Positions 3,440 to 64,000 of a stretch of 64,000 nucleotides of DNA are shown piece after piece. The notes below the pieces were generated by a model, which saw only the letters and a program-made list of their open reading frames with translations, did not search any database and was not told where the DNA came from. Within the stretch, counting starts at the first letter, position 1; each line of letters begins with the position of its first letter. Source of the DNA: Escherichia coli (GTDB lineage: Bacteria; Pseudomonadota; Gammaproteobacteria; Enterobacterales; Enterobacteriaceae); assembly GCF_017348835.2 (NCBI RefSeq), contig NZ_CP071375.1. The stretch is one strand, 5' to 3'. Made by a program: the position numbers and the translations under genes.

Positions 3440-3588
3440 TCTTTTTGTTCTGTAAGCCGGGTAAGCGCAATGCGCCCGGCAATCCATAAAGAATGTCGCC
3501 AGAAATAAACGGGCATACGGCCCGGGGATCTCTGCGCCCCGACGTTCACAAACTGCATATATCTGATAGACGTGAAACAGGAGTCATA

Positions 3589-5076
3589 ATGAATTTTCAT
3601 CATCTGGCTTACTGGCAGGATAAAGCGTTAAGTCTCGCCATTGAAACCCGCTTATTTATTAACGGTGAATATACTGCTGCGGCGGAAAATGAAACCTTTG
3701 AAACCGTTGATCCGGTCACCCAGGCACCGCTGGCGAAAATTGCCCGCGGCAAGAGCGTCGATATCGACCGTGCGGTGAGCGCAGCACGCGGCGTATTTGA
3801 ACGCGGCGACTGGTCACTCTCTTCTCCGGCTAAACGTAAAGCGGTACTGAATAAACTCGCCGATTTAATGGAAGCCAACGCCGAAGAGCTGGCACTGCTG
3901 GAAACTCTCGACACCGGCAAACCGATTCGTCACAGTCTGCGTGATGATATTCCCGGCGCGGCGCGCGCCATTCGCTGGTACGCCGAAGCGATCGACAAAG
4001 TGTATGGCGAAGTGGCGACCACCAGTAGCCATGAGCTGGCGATGATCGTGCGTGAACCGGTCGGCGTAATTGCCGCCATTGTACCGTGGAACTTCCCGCT
4101 GCTGCTGACCTGCTGGAAGCTTGGCCCGGCGCTGGCAGCAGGGAACAGCGTTGTCCTGAAACCGTCTGAAAAATCACCGCTCAGTGCGATTCGTCTCGCC
4201 GGGCTGGCTAAAGAGGCAGGCTTGCCGGATGGTGTGTTGAACGTGGTGACGGGTTTTGGTCATGAAGCGGGGCAGGCGCTGTCGCGTCATAACGATATCG
4301 ATGCCATCGCCTTTACCGGTTCAACCCGTACCGGGAAACAGCTGCTGAAAGATGCGGGCGACAGCAACATGAAACGCGTCTGGCTGGAAGCGGGCGGCAA
4401 AAGCGCCAACATCGTTTTCGCTGACTGCCCGGATTTGCAACAGGCGGCAAGCGCCACCGCAGCAGGCATCTTCTACAACCAGGGTCAGGTGTGCATCGCC
4501 GGAACGCGCCTGTTGCTGGAAGAGAGCATAGCTGATGAATTCTTAGCCCTGTTAAAACAGCAGGCGCAAAACTGGCAGCCGGGCCATCCACTTGATCCCG
4601 CAACCACCATGGGCACCTTAATCGACTGCGCCCACGCCGACTCGGTCCATAGCTTTATTCGGGAAGGCGAAAGCAAAGGGCAACTGTTGTTGGATGGCCG
4701 TAACGCCGGGCTGGCTGCCGCCATCGGCCCGACCATCTTTGTGGATGTAGACCCGAATGCGTCCTTAAGCCGCGAAGAGATTTTCGGTCCGGTGCTGGTT
4801 GTCACGCGTTTCACATCAGAAGAACAGGCGCTACAGCTTGCCAACGACAGCCAGTACGGCCTTGGCGCGGCGGTATGGACGCGCGACCTCTCCCGCGCGC
4901 ACCGCCTGAGCCGACGCCTGAAAGCCGGTTCCGTCTTCGTCAATAACTACAACGACGGCGATATGACCGTGCCGTTTGGCGGCTATAAGCAGAGCGGCAA
5001 CGGTCGCGACAAATCCCTGCATGCCCTTGAAAAATTCACCGAACTGAAAACCATCTGGATAAGCCTGGAGGCCTGA
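3589..5076 (+). CDS. puuC: gamma-glutamyl-gamma-aminobutyraldehyde dehydrogenase
   Basis: 495-aa aldehyde dehydrogenase starting MNFHHLAYWQDK; ATG at 3589. Confidence 0.95.
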   Translation: MNFHHLAYWQDKALSLAIETRLFINGEYTAAAENETFETVDPVTQAPLAKIARGKSVDIDRAVSAARGVFERGDWSLSSPAKRKAVLNKLADLMEANAEELALLETLDTGKPIRHSLRDDIPGAARAIRWYAEAIDKVYGEVATTSSHELAMIVREPVGVIAAIVPWNFPLLLTCWKLGPALAAGNSVVLKPSEKSPLSAIRLAGLAKEAGLPDGVLNVVTGFGHEAGQALSRHNDIDAIAFTGSTRTGKQLLKDAGDSNMKRVWLEAGGKSANIVFADCPDLQQAASATAAGIFYNQGQVCIAGTRLLLEESIADEFLALLKQQAQNWQPGHPLDPATTMGTLIDCAHADSVHSFIREGESKGQLLLDGRNAGLAAAIGPTIFVDVDPNASLSREEIFGPVLVVTRFTSEEQALQLANDSQYGLGAAVWTRDLSRAHRLSRRLKAGSVFVNNYNDGDMTVPFGGYKQSGNGRDKSLHALEKFTELKTIWISLEA

Positions 5077-26369: not shown

Positions 26370-27427
26370 CCGAACCGTTAAAACCACGTATTGATTTCGA
26401 CGGTCCGCTGGAGGTCGATCAGAATCCAAAATTCAGGGCGCAGCAGACCTTTGACGAAAATCAGGCGCAAAATTTTGCCCCGGCCACGCTCGATGAAGCG
26501 CCTGAAGAAGAGGGGCAAGTTGAAGCGGTAATGGATGCAGCGTTACGTCCGAAACGCAGCCTGTGGCGCAAAATGGTGATGGGCGGGCTGGCTCTGTTTG
26601 GCGCAAGCGTTGTCGGGCAGGGTGTACAGTGGACAATGAATGCCTGGCAAACTCAGGACTGGGTGGCGCTGGGTGGATGTGCCGCTGGGGCATTGATTAT
26701 CGGCGCTGGCGTAGGTTCTGTGGTAACAGAGTGGCGGCGCTTATGGCGCTTGCGACAGCGCGCCCATGAACGCGACGAAGCGCGCGATTTGTTGCACAGC
26801 CACGGCACGGGCAAAGGCCGCGCATTTTGCGAAAAACTGGCGCAGCAGGCGGGTATTGATCAGTCGCATCCGGCGCTACAACGCTGGTATGCCTCAATCC
26901 ATGAAACGCAAAACGACCGTGAAGTGGTCAGCCTGTATGCGCATTTGGTCCAGCCAGTTTTAGATGCCCAGGCGCGGCGCGAAATCAGCCGTTCGGCGGC
27001 GGAATCAACGTTGATGATTGCGGTCAGCCCGCTGGCGTTGGTCGATATGGCGTTTATCGCCTGGCGCAATCTGCGTTTAATTAATCGCATCGCCACGCTG
27101 TATGGCATTGAACTGGGATATTACAGCCGTTTGCACCTGTTCAAGCTGGTATTGCTGAATATCGCTTTCGCCGGAGCCAGCGAACTGGTGCGCGAAGTGG
27201 GGATGGACTGGATGTCGCAAGATCTCGCTGCTCGTTTGTCTACCCGCGCAGCTCAGGGGATTGGTGCAGGACTTCTGACGGCACGACTCGGGATTAAAGC
27301 TATGGAGCTTTGCCGCCCGCTGCCGTGGATTGACGATGACAAACCTCGCCTTGGGGATTTCCGTCGTCAGCTTATCGGTCAGGTGAAAGAAACGCTGCAA
27401 AAAGGCAAAACGCCCAGCGAAAAATAA
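26366..27427 (+). CDS. ycjF: UPF0283 inner membrane protein
   Basis: 353 aa; start overlaps ycjX stop. Confidence 0.9.
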
Positions 27428-50708: not shown

Positions 50709-52082
50709 GTGACCGCTTTTTCTACCCTGAATGTTTTGCCTCCCGCCCAACTCACGAACCTTAATGAGTTGGGTTATTTAACCATGACGCCGGTGCAGGC
50801 CGCCGCGCTTCCGGCGATCCTTGCCGGAAAAGATGTTCGCGTGCAGGCGAAAACCGGCAGCGGCAAAACGGCGGCTTTTGGCCTCGGCTTGTTACAGCAA
50901 ATTGATGCGTCGCTATTTCAAACCCAGGCTTTAGTGCTGTGTCCTACGCGTGAACTGGCGGATCAGGTGGCAGGTGAATTGCGTCGGCTGGCGCGTTTTC
51001 TGCCAAATACCAAAATTTTGACGTTGTGCGGTGGTCAACCGTTCGGTATGCAGCGTGATTCGTTGCAACATGCGCCGCATATTATCGTGGCAACGCCGGG
51101 GCGTTTGCTGGATCACCTGCAAAAAGGCACGGTATCACTGGATGCGTTGAATACGCTGGTGATGGATGAGGCCGACCGCATGCTGGATATGGGATTTAGC
51201 GATGCCATTGATGATGTCATCCGTTTTGCGCCAGCATCTCGACAGACGCTTCTGTTTTCGGCAACCTGGCCGGAAGCCATCGCCGCAATCAGCGGACGAG
51301 TGCAACGCGATCCTTTGGCGATTGAAATTGACTCAACAGATGCTTTGCCACCCATTGAACAACAATTTTATGAGACATCCAGTAAAGGCAAAATTCCTCT
51401 GTTGCAACGGTTATTAAGCTTGCATCAGCCATCCTCTTGTGTGGTGTTTTGCAATACCAAAAAAGATTGCCAGGCTGTCTGCGACGCGCTGAATGAAGTA
51501 GGGCAAAGTGCATTGTCGTTACACGGCGATCTGGAGCAACGCGATCGCGATCAGACCCTGGTACGTTTTGCTAACGGTAGCGCCCGTGTACTGGTTGCGA
51601 CTGATGTTGCTGCGCGTGGTATGGATATTAAATCGCTTGAGCTGGTGGTGAACTTTGAGCTGGCGTGGGACCCTGAAGTTCATGTACATCGCATCGGTCG
51701 TACAGCTCGTGCAGGAAATAGCGGTCTGGCGATCAGTTTCTGTGCTCCGGAAGAAGCACAGCGGGCCAATATCATTTCTGACATGTTGCAGATAAAACTT
51801 AACTGGCAAACGCCGCCAGCTAATAGTTCCATTGTGACGCTGGAAGCAGAAATGGCAACGTTGTGTATCGATGGCGGAAAAAAAGCCAAAATGCGCCCGG
51901 GTGATGTATTAGGTGCACTGACAGGAGATATCGGGCTTGATGGCGCAGATATTGGCAAAATCGCCGTGCATCCGGCGCATGTCTATGTCGCGGTCCGTCA
52001 GGCTGTTGCTCATAAAGCATGGAAACAGTTACAGGGCGGGAAGATTAAAGGAAAAACGTGCCGGGTGCGGTTATTAAAATAA
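50709..52082 (+). CDS. dbpA: ATP-dependent DEAD-box RNA helicase (23S rRNA-specific)
   Basis: 457 aa, GTG start, DEAD motif (MDEAD), sequence recognised. Confidence 0.95.
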   Translation: MTAFSTLNVLPPAQLTNLNELGYLTMTPVQAAALPAILAGKDVRVQAKTGSGKTAAFGLGLLQQIDASLFQTQALVLCPTRELADQVAGELRRLARFLPNTKILTLCGGQPFGMQRDSLQHAPHIIVATPGRLLDHLQKGTVSLDALNTLVMDEADRMLDMGFSDAIDDVIRFAPASRQTLLFSATWPEAIAAISGRVQRDPLAIEIDSTDALPPIEQQFYETSSKGKIPLLQRLLSLHQPSSCVVFCNTKKDCQAVCDALNEVGQSALSLHGDLEQRDRDQTLVRFANGSARVLVATDVAARGMDIKSLELVVNFELAWDPEVHVHRIGRTARAGNSGLAISFCAPEEAQRANIISDMLQIKLNWQTPPANSSIVTLEAEMATLCIDGGKKAKMRPGDVLGALTGDIGLDGADIGKIAVHPAHVYVAVRQAVAHKAWKQLQGGKIKGKTCRVRLLK

Positions 52083-52095
52083 TGAAATGTTGAAT

Positions 52096-52170
52096 TGCCG
52101 GGTGCAAGAGTAAACATCTGATTCGGGATTGCCGGATGCGACGCTGGCCGCGTCTTATCCGGCCTCCATA
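52096..52170. repeat. REP elements
   Basis: GCCGGATGCGACGCTGGCCGCGTCTTATCCGGCC-type palindromic units between dbpA and ttcA. Confidence 0.6.
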
Positions 52171-52210
52171 AGAGTAGCCCGATACGCTTGCGCATCGGGC
52201 GCCATCCTGG

Positions 52211-53146
52211 TTATTTCACTTCAACCACATTCAGCCGTAACTCATCCAACTGATTTTCATCTTCTTCTGGCTGCCAGCCCGCCGGTTGTAGTGGGATCTC
52301 TTCGCGATCAAACGCCAGATCACCCCCGTTAACCACTTCAGAACCGTGGGTGATGCCTTTGAAATCGAACAGGTTGGTATCGCACAGATGCGACGGCACC
52401 ACATTCTGCATCGCGCTGAACATCGTCTCGATACGCCCCGGATAACGTTTATCCCAGTCACGCAACATGTCAGCAATCACCTGACGTTGCAGGTTAGGCT
52501 GTGAACCGCACAGGTTGCACGGAATAATCGGGAACGCTTTTGCATCGGCAAATCGCTGAATATCTTTCTCGCGGCAGTAGGCCAGCGGACGAATAACGAT
52601 ATGTTTGCCATCATCGCTCATCAGTTTCGGAGGCATACCTTTCATCTTGCCGCCGTAGAACATATTTAAGAACAACGTTTGCAGGATATCGTCACGATGG
52701 TGGCCCAACGCGATCTTCGTCGCCCCCAGTTCCGTTGCGGTACGATAAAGAATACCGCGACGTAGCCGAGAACACAGTGAGCAAGTGGTTTTGCCCTCTG
52801 GAATCTTCTCTTTCACGATACCGTAAGTGTTCTCTTCAACAATCTTGTACTCAACGCCCAGCTTTTCAAGATACTCGGGCAGAACGTGTTCCGGGAAGCC
52901 CGGTTGCTTTTGATCGAGGTTAACAGCCACCAGCGAAAAATTGATTGGCGCGCTTTGCTGCAAATTGCGCAGAATCTCCAGCATGGTATAGCTGTCTTTA
53001 CCCCCGGAGAGGCAAACCATGATGCGATCGCCTTCTTCAATCATATTGAAGTCAGCAATGGCTTCGCCCACGTTACGACGCAGACGTTTTTGTAATTTGT
53101 TCAGGTTGTATTGTTCTTTCTTTGTAATTTGTTGATTTTCTTGCAT
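52211..53146 (-). CDS. ttcA: tRNA-cytidine(32) 2-sulfurtransferase
   Basis: 311 aa with PP-loop SGGKDS and CxxC motifs; 5' end abuts the prophage integrase. Confidence 0.95.
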
Positions 53147-53197
53147 TATTTCAGTTCTCTGGTACTAAATGGGGCAAATTGGGGGCAAACTTTGCAA

Positions 53198-54433
53198 CTA
53201 CGATAACCGCGCATTCAACATGGCTATCTGTTCGTCGTTCATGTCATCAATCCACATACCGTAAATTTCATACACCATCTGCGCAGTTTCATGCCCCATT
53301 TGGCTGGCTATAAATGCCGGGTTCGCTCCTGCCGTCAACAGCCAGCAGGCAAAAGTATGTCGCGTATGGTACGGATTACGGCGGCGAATACCAGCACGTT
53401 TTACTGCTGCATTCCACCTTGCCCCCAAACTGCTTACCGAGTAATAAGGTTTTTGTTTTCCGTTACACACCCTGGGCATGAAAACAAAATGCAGTTTTTG
53501 CTTTTCGGTTCTGCCGTACTCCCGATGATAAAAGGTGATTTCGCTTTTGCGATGATGCCCGGTCAGTTTGTATTGCTCCTTCAGTGCTTCAAGAGCAGGC
53601 TGCAGTAGTGTTACTGTTCGGATCCCGGCATTTGTTTTTGGGGGACCGAACATATCAAGTATCGTCAGGTTTCTTCTGACATTCACTATTCCCTTTTCGA
53701 GATCCACATCCTCCCACGCCAGAGCTGCCAGTTCCCCGTGACGAAGTCCTGAGTAAACGGCAAATTTCCACAAGTTCTGGCTCTGTCCTTTTTCACTTTC
53801 CATTAATGCATTGAATTCTGTTTTAGATAACGGATCAGGCTTTATTCTGTTTCGCTGTAATTTTTTTACTCCTTCAAATGGTTTGGTTGATATAAATCCC
53901 GACTGATACGCAAAACGCAACAGCGAACAGAGCAGGGCGATATAGTTATCAACTGTGCGCACGGTTCTTCCTTTTTTGTTGGATCTTGGATTATCCAGGT
54001 AAAGCGTTTCTCCATGCAGCAGTTCATTCCGGTAGTTTAAGATATCGCTATAACGAATATGTGATATCGGGGTACTTTCACAAATTATTATTCTGAGTGT
54101 TTTTAATTGTGATTTCGTTTTCTTCATTGTGTTTGTTGTTAACTCTGTCTCTTTAATTTTTGTCCAGATATCACAAAGCTCTCCGAACGTTTTTATGACT
54201 CTCGTTGTCACCATTTTTGCCCCAGTGCTGGACTGGGGAAAACGTCTTAAATACTCAAATTCACCGGAGTTTATTTCATGAACTATCAGCGCTCTTAAAT
54301 TTCCGGCCTTTTTAATATTACTGTTTGTAATCTCCCAGCCTTTTAATGTTTCCCGACATCGTTTTCCTCGAAACATGAACCAGATGCGAATGTATCTACC
54401 TCTAATCTCGACACCTGTTGGTAATTTAGACAT
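53198..54433 (-). CDS. intR: Rac-type prophage integrase (tyrosine recombinase)
   Basis: 411 aa, sequence recognised; ends 51 bp from the ttcA start. Confidence 0.9.
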   Translation of the reverse strand: MSKLPTGVEIRGRYIRIWFMFRGKRCRETLKGWEITNSNIKKAGNLRALIVHEINSGEFEYLRRFPQSSTGAKMVTTRVIKTFGELCDIWTKIKETELTTNTMKKTKSQLKTLRIIICESTPISHIRYSDILNYRNELLHGETLYLDNPRSNKKGRTVRTVDNYIALLCSLLRFAYQSGFISTKPFEGVKKLQRNRIKPDPLSKTEFNALMESEKGQSQNLWKFAVYSGLRHGELAALAWEDVDLEKGIVNVRRNLTILDMFGPPKTNAGIRTVTLLQPALEALKEQYKLTGHHRKSEITFYHREYGRTEKQKLHFVFMPRVCNGKQKPYYSVSSLGARWNAAVKRAGIRRRNPYHTRHTFACWLLTAGANPAFIASQMGHETAQMVYEIYGMWIDDMNDEQIAMLNARLS

Positions 54434-54434
54434 A

Positions 54435-54650
54435 TCATGAGTCTTTGATAAACTGATTTATCTTTGGATAGTTGTACCAGATAATCCCTCGTTTGCTGTC
54501 TGGCTTACCTAAAGGAGATACTCGTTTGAAGTGGAAGCCCTCCACCCAACAGTTCTGGCGGTATGCTTCAATTTGTCTGGCCCCCAGACCAGTGCGAAGC
54601 ATCAGGCCGTATTCAACCATCCACTCTTCATTAAAGATTACTTGTGCCAT
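54435..54650 (-). CDS. xisR: prophage excisionase-like protein
   Basis: 71 aa from [15 protein letters not shown], immediately upstream of intR. Confidence 0.75.
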
Positions 54651-54728
54651 CGCATCACCTCTGGCCGGCGCCAATGTTAGACTGAAATTGACGCCCGATG
54701 TTGATTATTAATAATCAGCTATGAAGTT

Positions 54729-54938
54729 TTAATTTGAATACAATGCAATTCTCGAGGACTGAAGTTTCTCGCAATTAAAATTTATCAGTTTTACTTTCTG
54801 CTCTCTGGAAACGCCTGCTTCTTTTTTACCTGAGAGCATTTTTTCGCATTCTGATTTCGTTAGTTTAGATTTTGAATATCTTGTCCAGTTAGTAGGAGTG
54901 CCACCTTCCTTTTCAATAGTGGCGGTAATTTTATACAT
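54729..54938 (-). CDS. ydaC: Rac prophage small protein YdaC (DUF1187)
   Basis: 69 aa from MYKITATIEKEGG. Confidence 0.75.
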   Translation of the reverse strand: MYKITATIEKEGGTPTNWTRYSKSKLTKSECEKMLSGKKEAGVSREQKVKLINFNCEKLQSSRIALYSN

Positions 54939-55009
54939 GAACACCTCCATTATTATTTCCAGTGGTTTGAACCGCCCCGGGTTTCCTGGAGAGTGTTTTA
55001 TCTGTGAAC

Positions 55010-55897
55010 TCAGGCTGCCAGATCATTATTTCCGATGGAAGCATAATAAGCTTTTTCTGCTTCTGCCGGAGGAATATGGCCCAGCCTTTCCAGCAATCGT
55101 CGATTGTTATACCAGTCCACCCACGTGAGTGTGGCCAGTTCCACTTCTGTCCGGTTTTTCCAGCTCTTACGGTGTATTACCTCCGCTTTGTAAAGACCAT
55201 TGATGCTCTCAGCCATCGCGTTGTCATACGAGTCGCCAGTACTCCCTGTTGATGCCAGTAATCCGGCTTCCTTAAGCCGCTGCGTGTAGGCCAGCGATAC
55301 ATACTGAGAACCTTTATCACTGTGATGGATTGTGCCGGACGGCCGACGGGCCCACAACGCCTGCTCCAGTGCATCCAGCACGAATGTTGTTTCCATGGAT
55401 GATGAGACCTGCCATCCCACGATGTATCCGGCGAACACATCAATGATGAACGCCACATAAACGAAGCCCTGCCATGTGCTTACCCAGGTAAAATCAGCCA
55501 CCCACAACTGGTCTGGACGTTCTGCCACGAACTGACGGTTTACGCGGTCGCATGCGGCAACGGCTTTCCGGCTGACGGTAGTGCGGACCTTTTTACCCCG
55601 GAGAACACCGGCAAGTCCCATAACTGCCATGAGACGTGCCACAGTGCATCTGGCCACTCTGATACCTTCCCGTAACAACTGACGCCAGACTTTACGCACA
55701 CCGTATACCTGGTGATTTTCATCGTATACGCGCTGTATCTCTTTCTTCAGCCAGTCATCGTGCTGCGCACGGGCACTGCGTTTATCCGGATGATGTCGCT
55801 GTTGCTGACAATGGTAATACGTTGACGGGGCAATATGCAGTTCGCTGCATACCGGTCCGACCCCGTACTGCTCACGCAGCTTATCCAGCAGTGGCAT
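55010..55897 (-). CDS. IS3-family transposase OrfB (DDE integrase domain)
   Basis: 295-aa frame with rve-type catalytic region; start overlaps the orfA stop (TAATG) next to an A-rich slippery stretch. Confidence 0.9.
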   Translation of the reverse strand: MPLLDKLREQYGVGPVCSELHIAPSTYYHCQQQRHHPDKRSARAQHDDWLKKEIQRVYDENHQVYGVRKVWRQLLREGIRVARCTVARLMAVMGLAGVLRGKKVRTTVSRKAVAACDRVNRQFVAERPDQLWVADFTWVSTWQGFVYVAFIIDVFAGYIVGWQVSSSMETTFVLDALEQALWARRPSGTIHHSDKGSQYVSLAYTQRLKEAGLLASTGSTGDSYDNAMAESINGLYKAEVIHRKSWKNRTEVELATLTWVDWYNNRRLLERLGHIPPAEAEKAYYASIGNNDLAA

Positions 55898-56223
55898 TAT
55901 TTTTTCCAGAGGCGGTCGAACTCCGCCTTCGCAAAATAAGCGGAAGCCTGGCGAAGGATATCGTTACTGCGGCGCAGTTCACGATTTTCACGTTCCAGCT
56001 CTTTCAGACGCTGACGTTCAGCGGTGGTGAGTCCACCATCACCACTCCCGGTATCCCGCTCATGCTGGCGAACCCAGACACGCAGAGTCTCCGGCGTACA
56101 GCCAATCTTTGGGGCAATGGAACAAATTGCCGCCCACTGTGAGTCATATTCATCCTGACTTTCCAGAACCATACGAATCGCCCGCTGACGGACTTCGGGG
56201 GAAAAACGAGTATTTTTAGTCAT
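55897..56223 (-). CDS. IS3-family transposase OrfA (HTH)
   Basis: 108 aa [42 protein letters not shown]... recognised as IS629/IS1203-type OrfA. Confidence 0.9.
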
Positions 56224-56277
56224 CCTGTTTACCTCTTTCTCAGGGAGTTTAGTCTCCAGGATTTCCGGGGCGGTTCA

Positions 56278-58436: not shown

Positions 58437-58474
58437 ACAATCGCGAGTCTGGATCCCCTTACCTGGCTGACACC

Positions 58475-61404: not shown

Positions 61405-62559
61405 ATGGATTATTTATCAGAAGTGTTAAAAATCATTGAAGGTGCAACAAAGGCAAATGCTTCGATGGCTAGTAATTATGCTGGGTTGCTGGCAGATAAG
61501 CTCGAACAAAAAGGGGAGGTCAAGCAAGCCAGAATGATAAGAGAAAGGTTGCTTAGAGCTCCCCAGGCGTTGGCAGGAGCTCAAAGGGCTGGAGGTGGGA
61601 TATCTCTGGGCTCATTACCGGTAGATATTGATAGTCGACTCAACACTGTTGATGTCAGTTATCCTAAATTAGACAGTTCAGAGATTTTTCTGCCTGCAGC
61701 AATCAGTACCCGTGTTGAAGAGTTTATCACTAATGTTCAACGTTATGATGAGTTTGTTAAAGCTGATGCAGCATTGCCGAGTCGTATGCTCGTGTATGGA
61801 AAGCCAGGAACAGGTAAGACTATGTTATCTAAGTACATCGCTACCCGCTTAGATTTTCCACTTCTTACAGTGCGTTGCGATACTTTGATTAGTAGTTTAT
61901 TGGGACAAACCAGCAAAAATCTTAGACAGGTTTTCGATTATGTAATGCAGAGGCCATCAGTGCTTTTTTTAGACGAATTTGATGCTTTAGCTGGAGCAAG
62001 AGGTAATGAGAGAGATATAGGTGAGCTTCAGCGAGTTGTCATTTCACTATTGCAGAATATGGATGCGGCATCAGAGGATACGGTAATTATTGCCTCAACT
62101 AACCATGAGCAACTTCTGGATCCTGCAATCTGGAGGCGATTTAGCTTCAGAATTCCAATGCCTCTGCCTGACATACATCAGAGAGAGTTAATTTGGAAAA
62201 ATCGTTTAAAGAATATGATATGTAGCGATCTAGATTTAAGTGATTTATCAAGAAAATCGGAAGGATTATCCGGAGCAATAATTGAACAGGTGAGCTTGGA
62301 TGCACGTAGGGATGCAGTTATTGAAGGTGCAAGTGTGATAAATCACCACAAATTGTATAGGCGTTTGTATCTTGCTCAATCGCTTATGGAAGGTGTAAAT
62401 TTAAGCACTTACGAAGATGAAATTCGTTGGTTACGTTCTAAAGATAAAAAATTATTTTCTATCAGAGTTCTTGCTAATTTGTACAAACTTACATCAAGAG
62501 TAATTTCAAACATTCTGAAGGAGTCAGGAGCATATGAGCAGAAGGGGTACACAGTTTAG
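61405..62559 (+). CDS. classic-clade AAA ATPase with ~125-aa N-terminal extension; first gene of the ATPase-protease cassette
   Basis: 384 aa; Walker A GKPGTGKT (61798-61821), Walker B VLFLDEFD (D190/E191 at 61972-61977), sensor-1 IIASTN, arginine-finger region DPAIWRRF; GGGAG RBS; AT-rich. Confidence 0.85.
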   Translation: MDYLSEVLKIIEGATKANASMASNYAGLLADKLEQKGEVKQARMIRERLLRAPQALAGAQRAGGGISLGSLPVDIDSRLNTVDVSYPKLDSSEIFLPAAISTRVEEFITNVQRYDEFVKADAALPSRMLVYGKPGTGKTMLSKYIATRLDFPLLTVRCDTLISSLLGQTSKNLRQVFDYVMQRPSVLFLDEFDALAGARGNERDIGELQRVVISLLQNMDAASEDTVIIASTNHEQLLDPAIWRRFSFRIPMPLPDIHQRELIWKNRLKNMICSDLDLSDLSRKSEGLSGAIIEQVSLDARRDAVIEGASVINHHKLYRRLYLAQSLMEGVNLSTYEDEIRWLRSKDKKLFSIRVLANLYKLTSRVISNILKESGAYEQKGYTV

Positions 62560-64000
62560 TAACGCAAAAGTTACAAACCCAACGTTAAGAATCCCTTTTT
62601 CCAGTAGTGACTTGGGTGCAATAGTAAACGCTGGCGGTGGGGCAAAGGTATTGGTTGATGTAACAGCCGAATATAGACAAGGGCTAGTAAGAAATTTAAC
62701 AACCAGTAAACATTATTTAGAATCCAAACTTTCAGAGTACCCTGGAAGCTTGGGTACTTTGGTTTTCAAATTAAGAGACCAGGGAATAGCCAAAACGCAT
62801 AGGCCGAACAAAATTGCTCAAGAGGCTGGATTGCAAAATGCCGGTCATGCCAAAATAGATGAAATGTTGGTTGCTGCTCATGCCGGCTGTTTTGACGTAT
62901 TAGAGTCAGTCATTTTAAATCGGAATATTAAAGCGATTTTGGCTAATCTAAGCGCGATTGAGCGCATTGAACCTTGGGATGAGAATAGGAAGGTTCCGGG
63001 AGGCACTGATGGTTTGTTTGAATCATCAAACATCCTTGTACGACTATTTGAGTACACAGGTGAAGATGCAACTTACAACAACTATGAAAACGTTATTTCT
63101 ATATTAGAACAATACGGAGTTAAATATGATGAAATTAGACAAAAATGTGGTCTTCCCTTATTAAGGATAATGGATTTATCCCCAAGTGATAGATATATAT
63201 TAGACATTCTCATTGATTACCCGGGTATAAGAACGTTAATTCCAGAACCAAAATATTCAGCATTCCCGGTTAGTGTAAGTGATTCTGTTGGCATTGAAAC
63301 AAATAGCTTTCCCGTACCATCAGAAGAATTACCCATTGTTGCTGTATTTGACACTGGGGTAAGCCCCATCGCGGCAACAATTACTCCTTGGGTAGTGAGT
63401 AGGGAAACATACGTAATTCCTCCTGATACGAGTTATGAACATGGGACTATGGTGTCTTCATTGATATCAGGCGCTCATTTTTTAAATGACAATCATCCAT
63501 GGATTCCTGATACAAAATCTAAAATCCATGATGTTTGTGCTTTAGATGAAAATGGATCTTATATATCAGATTTAATTCTGAGGCTAGCAGATGCTGTAAA
63601 TAAAAGACCAGATATAAAAGTCTGGAATTTGTCTTTGGGAGGCGGACCATGTAATGAGCAGATGTTTAGTGATTTTGCGATGGAGTTAGATCGGCTCAGC
63701 GATAAATTTGGTATTTTGTTTGTAGTTGCTGCAGGTAATTATGTAGATGAACCTATACGTACATGGCCAAATCCTGATCCGCTTGGAGGTGCTGATTTAA
63801 TTTCCTCTCCTGGAGAGTCAGTCCGAGCACTAACAGTTGGTTCAGTTTCTCATATGGAAGCTAATGATGCTTTAAGTGAAATTGGAACACCGACACCATA
63901 TACTCGTCGTGGCCCTGGTCCTGTATTTACTCCAAAGCCAGATATAATCCATGCTGGCGGTGGGGTTCATAGACCTTGGAATGTAGGAGCAAGCAGTTTA
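62534..64000 (+). CDS. subtilisin-like (S8) serine peptidase, partial (runs off window end); second gene of the cassette
   Basis: ATG at 62534 overlaps the ATPase 3' end by 26 nt; catalytic Asp in VAVFDTG (63350-63352), His in YEHGTMVSS (63440-63442), S8 motifs VWNLSLGG and VVAAGN (Asn at 63737-63739); catalytic Ser expected beyond 64000; ~270 aa precede the catalytic core. Confidence 0.8.
   Translation, partial: MSRRGTQFSNAKVTNPTLRIPFSSSDLGAIVNAGGGAKVLVDVTAEYRQGLVRNLTTSKHYLESKLSEYPGSLGTLVFKLRDQGIAKTHRPNKIAQEAGLQNAGHAKIDEMLVAAHAGCFDVLESVILNRNIKAILANLSAIERIEPWDENRKVPGGTDGLFESSNILVRLFEYTGEDATYNNYENVISILEQYGVKYDEIRQKCGLPLLRIMDLSPSDRYILDILIDYPGIRTLIPEPKYSAFPVSVSDSVGIETNSFPVPSEELPIVAVFDTGVSPIAATITPWVVSRETYVIPPDTSYEHGTMVSSLISGAHFLNDNHPWIPDTKSKIHDVCALDENGSYISDLILRLADAVNKRPDIKVWNLSLGGGPCNEQMFSDFAMELDRLSDKFGILFVVAAGNYVDEPIRTWPNPDPLGGADLISSPGESVRALTVGSVSHMEANDALSEIGTPTPYTRRGPGPVFTPKPDIIHAGGGVHRPWNVGASSL

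Follow-up and report, generated by a model that had tools for sequence, protein, structure and literature searches.

A Rac-type prophage attachment site within the 5′ coding region of ttcA in Escherichia coli, with putative integrase relics upstream of the gene

The stretch of Escherichia coli DNA analysed here (64,000 nt of contig NZ_CP071375.1, hereafter the window) almost certainly contains the attL of a Rac-type lambdoid prophage, the recombination core of which lies inside the 5′ coding region of ttcA. Judged from the alignments presented below, ttcA in this strain is a hybrid gene, codons 1–8 being of prophage origin and the transition to host sequence falling within the core (codons 9–17) or immediately behind it. 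That the Rac attL is located in ttcA has already been published for E. coli K-12 (Liu et al. 2015, Sci Rep 5:16074), and the finding is correct but ordinary. A further idea, namely that relics of integrase genes persist upstream of ttcA and that a ttcA promoter is embedded in the integrase coding region, is new and unproven.

Results

Gene layout at the ttcA locus

The region consists of three genes read in the same direction and a short spacer:

52211–53146, minus strand: ttcA, encoding tRNA 2-thiocytidine(32) synthetase, 311 aa (open reading frame list, PP-loop domain and RefSeq annotation of the identical PE164 sequence)
53147–53197, minus strand: 51-bp spacer, representing the P′ arm of attP and part of the lysogen's ttcA leader (conserved in the attP of contig L039 and phage PHB10, see below)
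53198–54433, minus strand: intR, encoding a lambda-type tyrosine integrase, 411 aa (the same RefSeq protein as K-12 IntR, WP_000040852.1)
54435–54650, minus strand: xisR (ydaQ), encoding an excisionase with DUF1233 (PF06806, E = 8.9e-21; WP_000079604.1 in both PE164 and K-12)

The intR stop codon TAG occupies positions 53200–53198 and the ttcA start codon ATG positions 53146–53144, both on the minus strand, leaving a gap of exactly 51 bp (53147–53197), the distance that an earlier note on this DNA had given. The identity of window positions 52000–54700 is 100% with E. coli PE164 and 99.6% with K-12, and RefSeq labels the matching stretches of these two genomes dbpA, ttcA, intR and xisR. The layout is not a matter of chance, because the ttcA-intR-xisR block recurs with at least 80% query cover in 1,840 of 5,426 complete E. 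coli genomes. IntR combines an N-terminal Arm-DNA-bind_2 domain (PF12167, E = 3.9e-26, residues 5–69) with a Phage_integrase domain (PF00589, E = 6.6e-23), and when its catalytic domain is compared with that of Tn1549 Int, box II (RHTF), the MGH motif and the tyrosine align.

The remainder of the window is ordinary E. coli chromosome with, in this order, puu, psp, ycj, fnr, abg, dgcM, zntB and dbpA. Between dbpA and the 3′ end of ttcA there is a REP-like palindromic element (52127–52163) with a weak match to naRNA4 (29 bits, against a gathering score of 59.5).

The attachment core and the two prophage ends

The distal end of the prophage lies outside the window and was read in the near-identical complete genome of PE164 (NZ_CP114128.1, locus L001), not in the window's own record. 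A window coordinate equals the L001 coordinate plus 50,657, and where the two sequences overlap they differ by 2 mismatches in 13,343 bases (99.985% identity), although the strain analysed here might in principle deviate from PE164 at the distal end. The comparison of both ends yielded the following features:

53097–53122, no strand assigned: att core (attL copy), 26 bp, TTGTTCAGGTTGTATTGTTCTTTCTT, identical in attL, attR and attB and spanning ttcA codons 9–17
53097–53111, no strand assigned: probable strand-exchange segment, 15 bp, TTGTTCAGGTTGTAT, identical between attL and attR in the diverged Rac-SA53 prophage

The core, which occurs once in the window (0 expected in shuffles), has a second copy in PE164 that lies 24,995 bp further on in direct orientation (L001 2440–2465 and 27435–27460). 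This distal copy sits between sitA and uspF in a repeat of 43 bp with 93% identity around the exact 26-bp block, and to its right one finds, in the same register, the start of ttcA that was displaced (MSQNQEIS…) and, beyond it, a short leader followed by the uspF terminator. The earlier note had predicted precisely such a duplicated ttcA 5′ fragment, together with the core, at the far prophage end beyond the window, and PE164 has it next to uspF. The expected distal end reads TTGTTCAGGTTGTATTGTTCTTTCTT, then GCTAATTTCTTGATTTTGCGACAT, then uspF. As the origin of the repeat, a target-site duplication was rejected: an exact match of 26 bp embedded in an imperfect 43-bp homology, in company with an integrase, an excisionase and arm repeats, is a signature of site-specific recombination.

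We built a predicted attB from the window sequence up to 53122 and the PE164 sequence past the distal core. The reconstructed site turned out to be contiguous in 2,489 of the 5,426 complete E. coli genomes, where its identity reaches 99.6% and ttcA adjoins uspF, which provides the comparison with a prophage-free ttcA locus that had been proposed; O157:H7 strain PV15-279, where ttcA lies directly beside uspF, is one example. In the three-way alignment of attB, attL and attR the partners switch across the common 26-bp block at 53097–53122, attB being equal to attL on its left and to attR on its right. The core thus located, 24–49 nt into the ttcA coding region, lies in the 5′ coding region as the earlier note had anticipated, to the left of the interval 53147–53197 in which that note had put the junction itself. 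A junction within this 51-bp gap, leaving ttcA wholly host-encoded with only its promoter displaced, would agree with that placement, with the non-coding nature of the gap and with the many phages that insert outside coding regions, but it has virtually no chance of being correct, as the three-way alignment rules it out: prophage-free genomes match the window only to 53122 and then follow the attR sequence, and in the contiguous attP the ATG and codons 1–8 go with the phage.

The attL of K-12 is base-for-base identical to that of the window, and within the aligned att region the attR of K-12 differs from that of PE164 by one base, just outside the core. The identical 26 bp are marked as the att site in GenBank entry KU052037 (Rac-SA53). 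In Rac-SA53 attL and attR part ways after the first 15 bp of the core, which suggests, from this one diverged prophage, that strand exchange takes place within 53097–53111. KU052037 itself gives the name "attP" to the core copy at attL and "attB" to the one at attR.

The phage form of the site is found on IMG/VR contig L039, a contiguous attP with the order xis, int, 51-bp spacer, ttcA 5′ mimic, core, P arm and tail-fibre assembly gene. The isolated phage PHB10 (MK524177), the integrase of which is 69% identical to IntR, has the same attP layout, with a 22-residue ttcA-mimic sequence after int. Most of the 80 IMG/VR loci inspected are prophage predictions cut at the int stop codon, and only L039 spans attP. 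The records of Rac-SA53, SPF_0923 and vB_EcoS-683R6 include host flanks and are for this reason not independent evidence for attP. The entries KU052037, ON032529 and ON470595, deposited as complete phage genomes, are prophage regions with host flanks (ttcA, uspF, ompN, nifJ).

Arms of the attachment site

Around the core we identified candidate protein-binding sequences on the plus strand:

53125–53137, plus strand: IHF consensus TAANNNNTTGATW (pattern match), between the core and the ttcA start codon
53171–53178 and 53182–53189, plus strand: candidate arm-type integrase repeats GGGGCAAA, with a degenerate third copy TTTGCAAC at 53192–53199 and a spacing of 10–11 bp

In the P arm, at the distal end of PE164, exact copies of GGGGCAAA occur at L001 27292, 27311 and 27322 and a degenerate copy, GCTGCAAA, at 27302, with a spacing of 9–11 bp. 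Five of the seven exact copies in L001 lie within 150 bp of the two cores (2 in P′, 3 in P), and the TGCCCC-N5-TGCCCC pair is kept downstream of ~70%-identical integrases (Enterobacter cloacae L092, PHB10) and in decayed sites. We infer that the GGGGCAAA repeats are arm-type IntR sites. At the distal end, PE164 and K-12 become homologous 153 bp away from the core, giving a lambda-sized P arm of ~150 bp. In K-12, an IHF GeF-seq peak has been reported at the Rac attL (PMC8407004), and the consensus at 53125–53137 corresponds to it.

The prophage-supplied 5′ end of ttcA and its transcription in the lysogen

Two further features concern the part of ttcA that lies on the phage side of the core:

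53123–53146, minus strand: prophage-supplied ttcA codons 1–8, MQENQQIT (adjoining the core in the contiguous attP of L039 and PHB10)
53257 and 53260, minus strand: published ttcA start sites, mapped to the identical window sequence, inside intR and 111 and 114 nt upstream of the ATG

The suggestion that the first ttcA codons are contributed by the prophage was borne out for codons 1–8. The phage-borne ttcA 5′ mimic differs from the displaced host copy by 7 nt and 4 aa, so that the TtcA N-terminus reads MQENQQIT in the lysogen vs MSQNQEIS in prophage-free genomes, both proteins having 311 aa. Excision of Rac from K-12 gives the same four TtcA substitutions (Liu et al. 2015; PMC11014345).

By the topology of attB, attL and attR, all DNA upstream of 53122 is prophage DNA, and the promoter of ttcA is likewise prophage-supplied, as the earlier note had it. 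In the Rac-positive strain MG1655, ttcA 5′ ends have been mapped to NC_000913.2 positions 1410083 and 1410086, with 8 and 15 reads (Kim et al. 2012, PMC3415461). Since these K-12 starts lie inside intR, the prophage-supplied promoter has experimental support in K-12. A sigma-70 promoter consensus scan of 52900–53700 returned no match, the int-internal elements scoring below the scan threshold in the lysogen, and a terminator scan of the same interval returned no terminator-like site between intR and ttcA. An Rfam search of the junction and leader gave no RNA family, and ttcA is not mentioned in supplementary data of three other start-site studies.

We propose, with high confidence, the following course of events. 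IntR, probably a heterobivalent tyrosine integrase, joined the phage attP with the bacterial attB at the 26-bp core in ttcA codons 9–17. Integration splits ttcA in such a way that the gene body stays at attL, fused to a phage mimic that provides the start, the first codons, the ribosome-binding region and the leader, and that the original ttcA start, leader and promoter are moved ~25 kb to attR as the ttcC′ fragment beside uspF. In the lysogen, ttcA is then transcribed from prophage DNA, with starts mapped in K-12 within the 3′ end of intR, and read-through may add to its transcription because no terminator-like site separates intR and ttcA. XisR and IntR, probably with IHF, could reverse the integration, yielding a ttcA′ with four N-terminal amino acid changes. 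What the sequences compared here show is the geometry of the site with its core, the existence of an empty site and of a contiguous attP, and the amino acid changes; excision, IHF binding and the start sites are taken from the K-12 literature. IntR/XisR-dependent excision and integration at this site have been demonstrated for K-12 Rac (Liu et al. 2015; PMC11014345), as has the function of XisR as an excisionase, and for excision IntR and XisR are sufficient (Liu et al. 2015).

Putative integrase relics and a promoter-like element upstream of ttcA

Part of intR (53351–53401) matches "host" DNA situated 105–155 bp to the right of the distal core (L001 27565–27615), with 76% identity over 51 nt (blastn E = 1.6e-4). 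The same relic is present in the O157 empty site (L002 2042–2094), between the native ttcA′ and the uspF terminator (…NPYHTRHSF…). On the ttcA strand the relic translates to KCADIFPSNPYHTRHSFYIRFLMLG, the corresponding IntR residues 345–369 being KRAGIRRRNPYHTRHTFACWLLTAG (tblastn E = 2e-5, in a small search space), and the stretch takes in the catalytic box-II Arg-His codons.

We surveyed the region upstream of ttcA in one genome per species with TtcA (L088–L119, 600 nt upstream in each). A full-length Rac-like int lies directly upstream of ttcA in L088, L092 (Enterobacter cloacae) and L095, and int pseudogenes with stops or frameshifts occupy the same place in E. albertii, Citrobacter youngae, Enterobacter spp., Kluyvera and Brenneria. 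Minimal relics of 9–25 codons, of the form (K)(R/H)AGIRRRNPYHTRHT, were found in Pseudocitrobacter, Superficieibacter, Pectobacterium, Mangrovibacter, Pantoea, Grimontia and the empty site of E. coli/Citrobacter. Enterobacter sp. Ag1 has two tandem int relics with an old ttcA 5′ fragment between them (L100, about 3478–3600 and 3677–3946), and in E. albertii the first 30 nt of the E. coli-type relic, by the uspF terminator, are followed by a deletion joint (L089 1040–1120); these two loci are footprints of serial occupation of the ttcA site.

The int genes, pseudogenes and relics upstream of ttcA have TAATCCGTACCATAC in common, a sequence that is also present in Rahnella and Budvicia (1–2 mismatches) and in five Vibrionaceae (2–3 mismatches), with a more diverged copy in Acerihabitans. 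It contains a sigma-70-like arrangement, for which the window has the following feature:

53366–53394, minus strand: sigma-70-like element in the IntR codons for AGIRRRNPYH, with the -35 hexamer CTGGTA at 53394–53389, a 17-nt spacer and the -10 hexamer TACCAT at 53371–53366 (hypothetical promoter)

Intact int genes have CTGGTA as the -35 hexamer, and the relics have CTGGCA or CTGACA, which are nearer to consensus; the spacer has 17 nt, and the -10 hexamer is TACCAT (TATCAT in Vibrionaceae). In the E. coli empty site, CTGACA-17 nt-TACCAT is the sole consensus promoter match between the uspF terminator and ttcA. Comparing Rac IntR with 70%-identical integrases, the proportion of identical codons among conserved residues is 0.40 gene-wide, 0.80 for codons 341–360 and 0.56–0.80 for codons 331–411. 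This conservation of intR codons 331–411 (53198–53441) is compatible with a constraint at the DNA level, exerted by embedded ttcA promoters or by the leader, or with local recombination, which could mimic synonymous-site conservation in intR.

Tentatively, these observations may be taken to mean that what looks like an "empty" ttcA attB, in E. coli as in many other Enterobacterales, is the fossil of an attL, and that its native leader and promoter descend from earlier Rac-like prophages, namely from the 3′ end of their int and from their P′ arm; we consider this a real possibility, if one somewhat short of being favoured. Rac-type integrases would, hypothetically, carry a ttcA promoter of the form CTGRCA-N17-TACCAT within their box-II coding region AGIRRRNPYHTRH. 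Repeated Rac-like integration followed by decay would have left int 3′ ends upstream of ttcA, kept for the transcription of ttcA, and in the relics the -35 hexamer would have drifted to a better match, from CTGGTA in intact int via CTGGCA to CTGACA. Relics would accumulate because ttcA relies on the int-embedded promoter, so that deletions removing a prophage must spare that piece.

A weak point of the embedded promoter is that the ttcA starts mapped in K-12 lie ~100 nt downstream of the sigma-70-like element. The sequence ATCCG just before the -10 hexamer is highly conserved, and the sigma-70 reading does not account for it. Two other readings of the motif were rejected: a sigma-54 promoter, as the motif has no TTGC -12 element and GG is absent from the E. 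coli relic, and an IscR type-2 site, as the second half-site is missing. The conserved motif also contains a partial palindrome, CGTAY-C-ATACG. A distant DNA search of the phage collection with the empty-site intergenic region gave two matching records only, both with host flank, and in full-text literature searches neither the promoter of E. coli ttcA nor int relics came up.

The direction of descent could also be the reverse, CTGRCA-N17-TAYCAT being the ancestral host promoter of ttcA and the ttcA-targeting integrases having copied it in their codons (PYHT, not AYQS). The motif is indeed found upstream of ttcA in Vibrionaceae, Budvicia and Rahnella where nothing else is int-like, and the integrase paralogues of 933W, Gifsy-2 and others (40–44% identical), which serve different att sites, have AYQS for PYHT and are without the DNA motif. 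We nevertheless regard this origin as unlikely, if not strikingly so, because it has to be set against the graded series at one and the same position, from full-length int through frameshifted pseudogenes to short relics; moreover, the spacer, which a host promoter would leave free to vary, is nearly identical to int in several genera, and the relics retain the catalytic Arg-His codons of box II.

Rather than from a dedicated promoter in the 3′ end of int, ttcA might be expressed in the lysogen mainly by read-through from xisR-intR. The co-directional orientation of xisR, intR and ttcA, the lack of a terminator-like site between them and the lack of a consensus sigma-70 promoter in 52900–53700 would all suit this explanation, but primary ttcA 5′ ends are located inside intR, 111 and 114 nt upstream of the ATG, and in prophage-free strains, where ttcA needs its own promoter because the uspF terminator is immediately upstream, the only consensus match is the int-derived element. 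Read-through as the main source is, in our judgement, distinctly unlikely; read-through and an int-internal promoter are compatible, however, and both can operate.

Decay and cargo of the prophage body

The prophage has a length of about 25.0 kb in PE164 vs 23.06 kb in K-12. Relative to K-12 Rac it has undergone a 5.25-kb deletion, with the joint at ~58459–58463, by which a truncated recE was joined to ydaU and recE-N, racC, ydaE, kilR, sieB, ydaF, racR, ydaS and ydaT were lost; the prophage consequently has neither a repressor/immunity region nor the toxic ydaS/ydaT. An IS3-family element (54968–56277; orfA/orfB with a programmed frameshift, ALIL pseudoknot at 55826–55942) lies in the 3′ end of ralR, where it swaps out about the last 11 codons of this toxin gene and parts it from its antitoxin sRNA RalA (54754–54932, Rfam 225 bits).

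As the prophage is more decayed than K-12 Rac, the argument for its excision competence comes from the intact int, xis and att only. The prophage might accordingly be a dead fossil, fixed in this strain and with an attL that is past supporting recombination, as the loss of recE-N, racC, kilR, sieB, racR, ydaS and ydaT and the truncation of ralR by the IS3-family insertion would suggest, and the more decayed int fragments at ttcA in other genera show that fixation does occur. Yet IntR and XisR are the same proteins as in the excision-proficient K-12, where excision requires nothing but these two (Liu et al. 2015), attL is identical to the K-12 attL, and PE164 retains an undamaged core and P arm at attR, all of which makes a dead fossil quite improbable.

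Several genes of the prophage body are accessory. An iteA/iteS anti-phage system (ATPase and S8 peptidase, by the PE164 annotation) extends over 61405–64000, where it is cut by the window end; this DNA is absent from K-12 Rac. In PE164 the iron/manganese transporter genes sitABCD (L001 23891–27075; sitB is an annotated pseudogene) are flanked by the tail-fibre assembly gene on one side and the attR P arm on the other, at a place where K-12 has pinR, ydfK and ynaM. The sit-attR-uspF stretch is also part of the deposited "Salmonella phage SPF_0923".

Discussion

The site described here is, in its essentials, that of K-12 Rac (Liu et al. 2015, Sci Rep 5:16074), with which it shares IntR and XisR, attL, the 26-bp core, the four TtcA changes and the host flanks, dbpA-ttcA on one side and uspF on the other. 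It differs from K-12 Rac in the IS3-family insertion between RalA and ralR, in the deletion from recE-N to ydaT (racR, kilR and sieB included) and in its cargo, which consists of iteA/iteS and sitABCD in place of the pinR/ydfK of K-12.

The architecture resembles that of phage lambda in that transcription of int, the gene nearest to attP, runs towards the site, the short P′ arm extends over ~75 bp as far as the int stop codon and the P arm over ~150 bp, candidate arm-type motifs are present on both arms, those of P′ being separated from the core by an IHF consensus, and the integrase has an N-terminal arm-binding domain. In contrast to lambda, the Rac core is located inside a coding region, the candidate arm and core sequences are unrelated to those of lambda, and among solved structures IntR has no sequence-detectable match to lambda Int, the best match being Tn1549 Int.

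As in phage 21 and e14, which integrate in icd, and in the phages that use tRNA genes, the gene end that is displaced has a near-copy on the phage, which leaves the target gene intact after integration; as with e14 in icd, small differences between the two copies of the gene end translate into allele changes on excision. Phage 21, e14 and the tRNA-gene phages replace the 3′ end of their target, whereas Rac replaces the 5′ end, for which a start codon, a region for translation initiation and a promoter have to be supplied as well. The Qin prophage at ydfJ, with an integrase of a related family, likewise is inserted at the 5′ end of a host gene; ydfJ, however, is described as having lost its promoter and being truncated, whereas Rac leaves ttcA full-length and transcribed.

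The Rac finding re-derives textbook knowledge, that is, the location of Rac and the toggling of the TtcA N-terminus by integration and excision, and its main use is that attL can be annotated correctly for this strain. Should the promoter within int and the series of relics prove real, the case would illustrate clearly how a conserved housekeeping gene can have its promoter rewired by a phage. A dual constraint would then act on the coding sequence of the integrase, the dependence of the host on phage regulatory DNA would limit the decay of the prophage, and the published view of TtcA′ as simply the ancient host copy would be revised.
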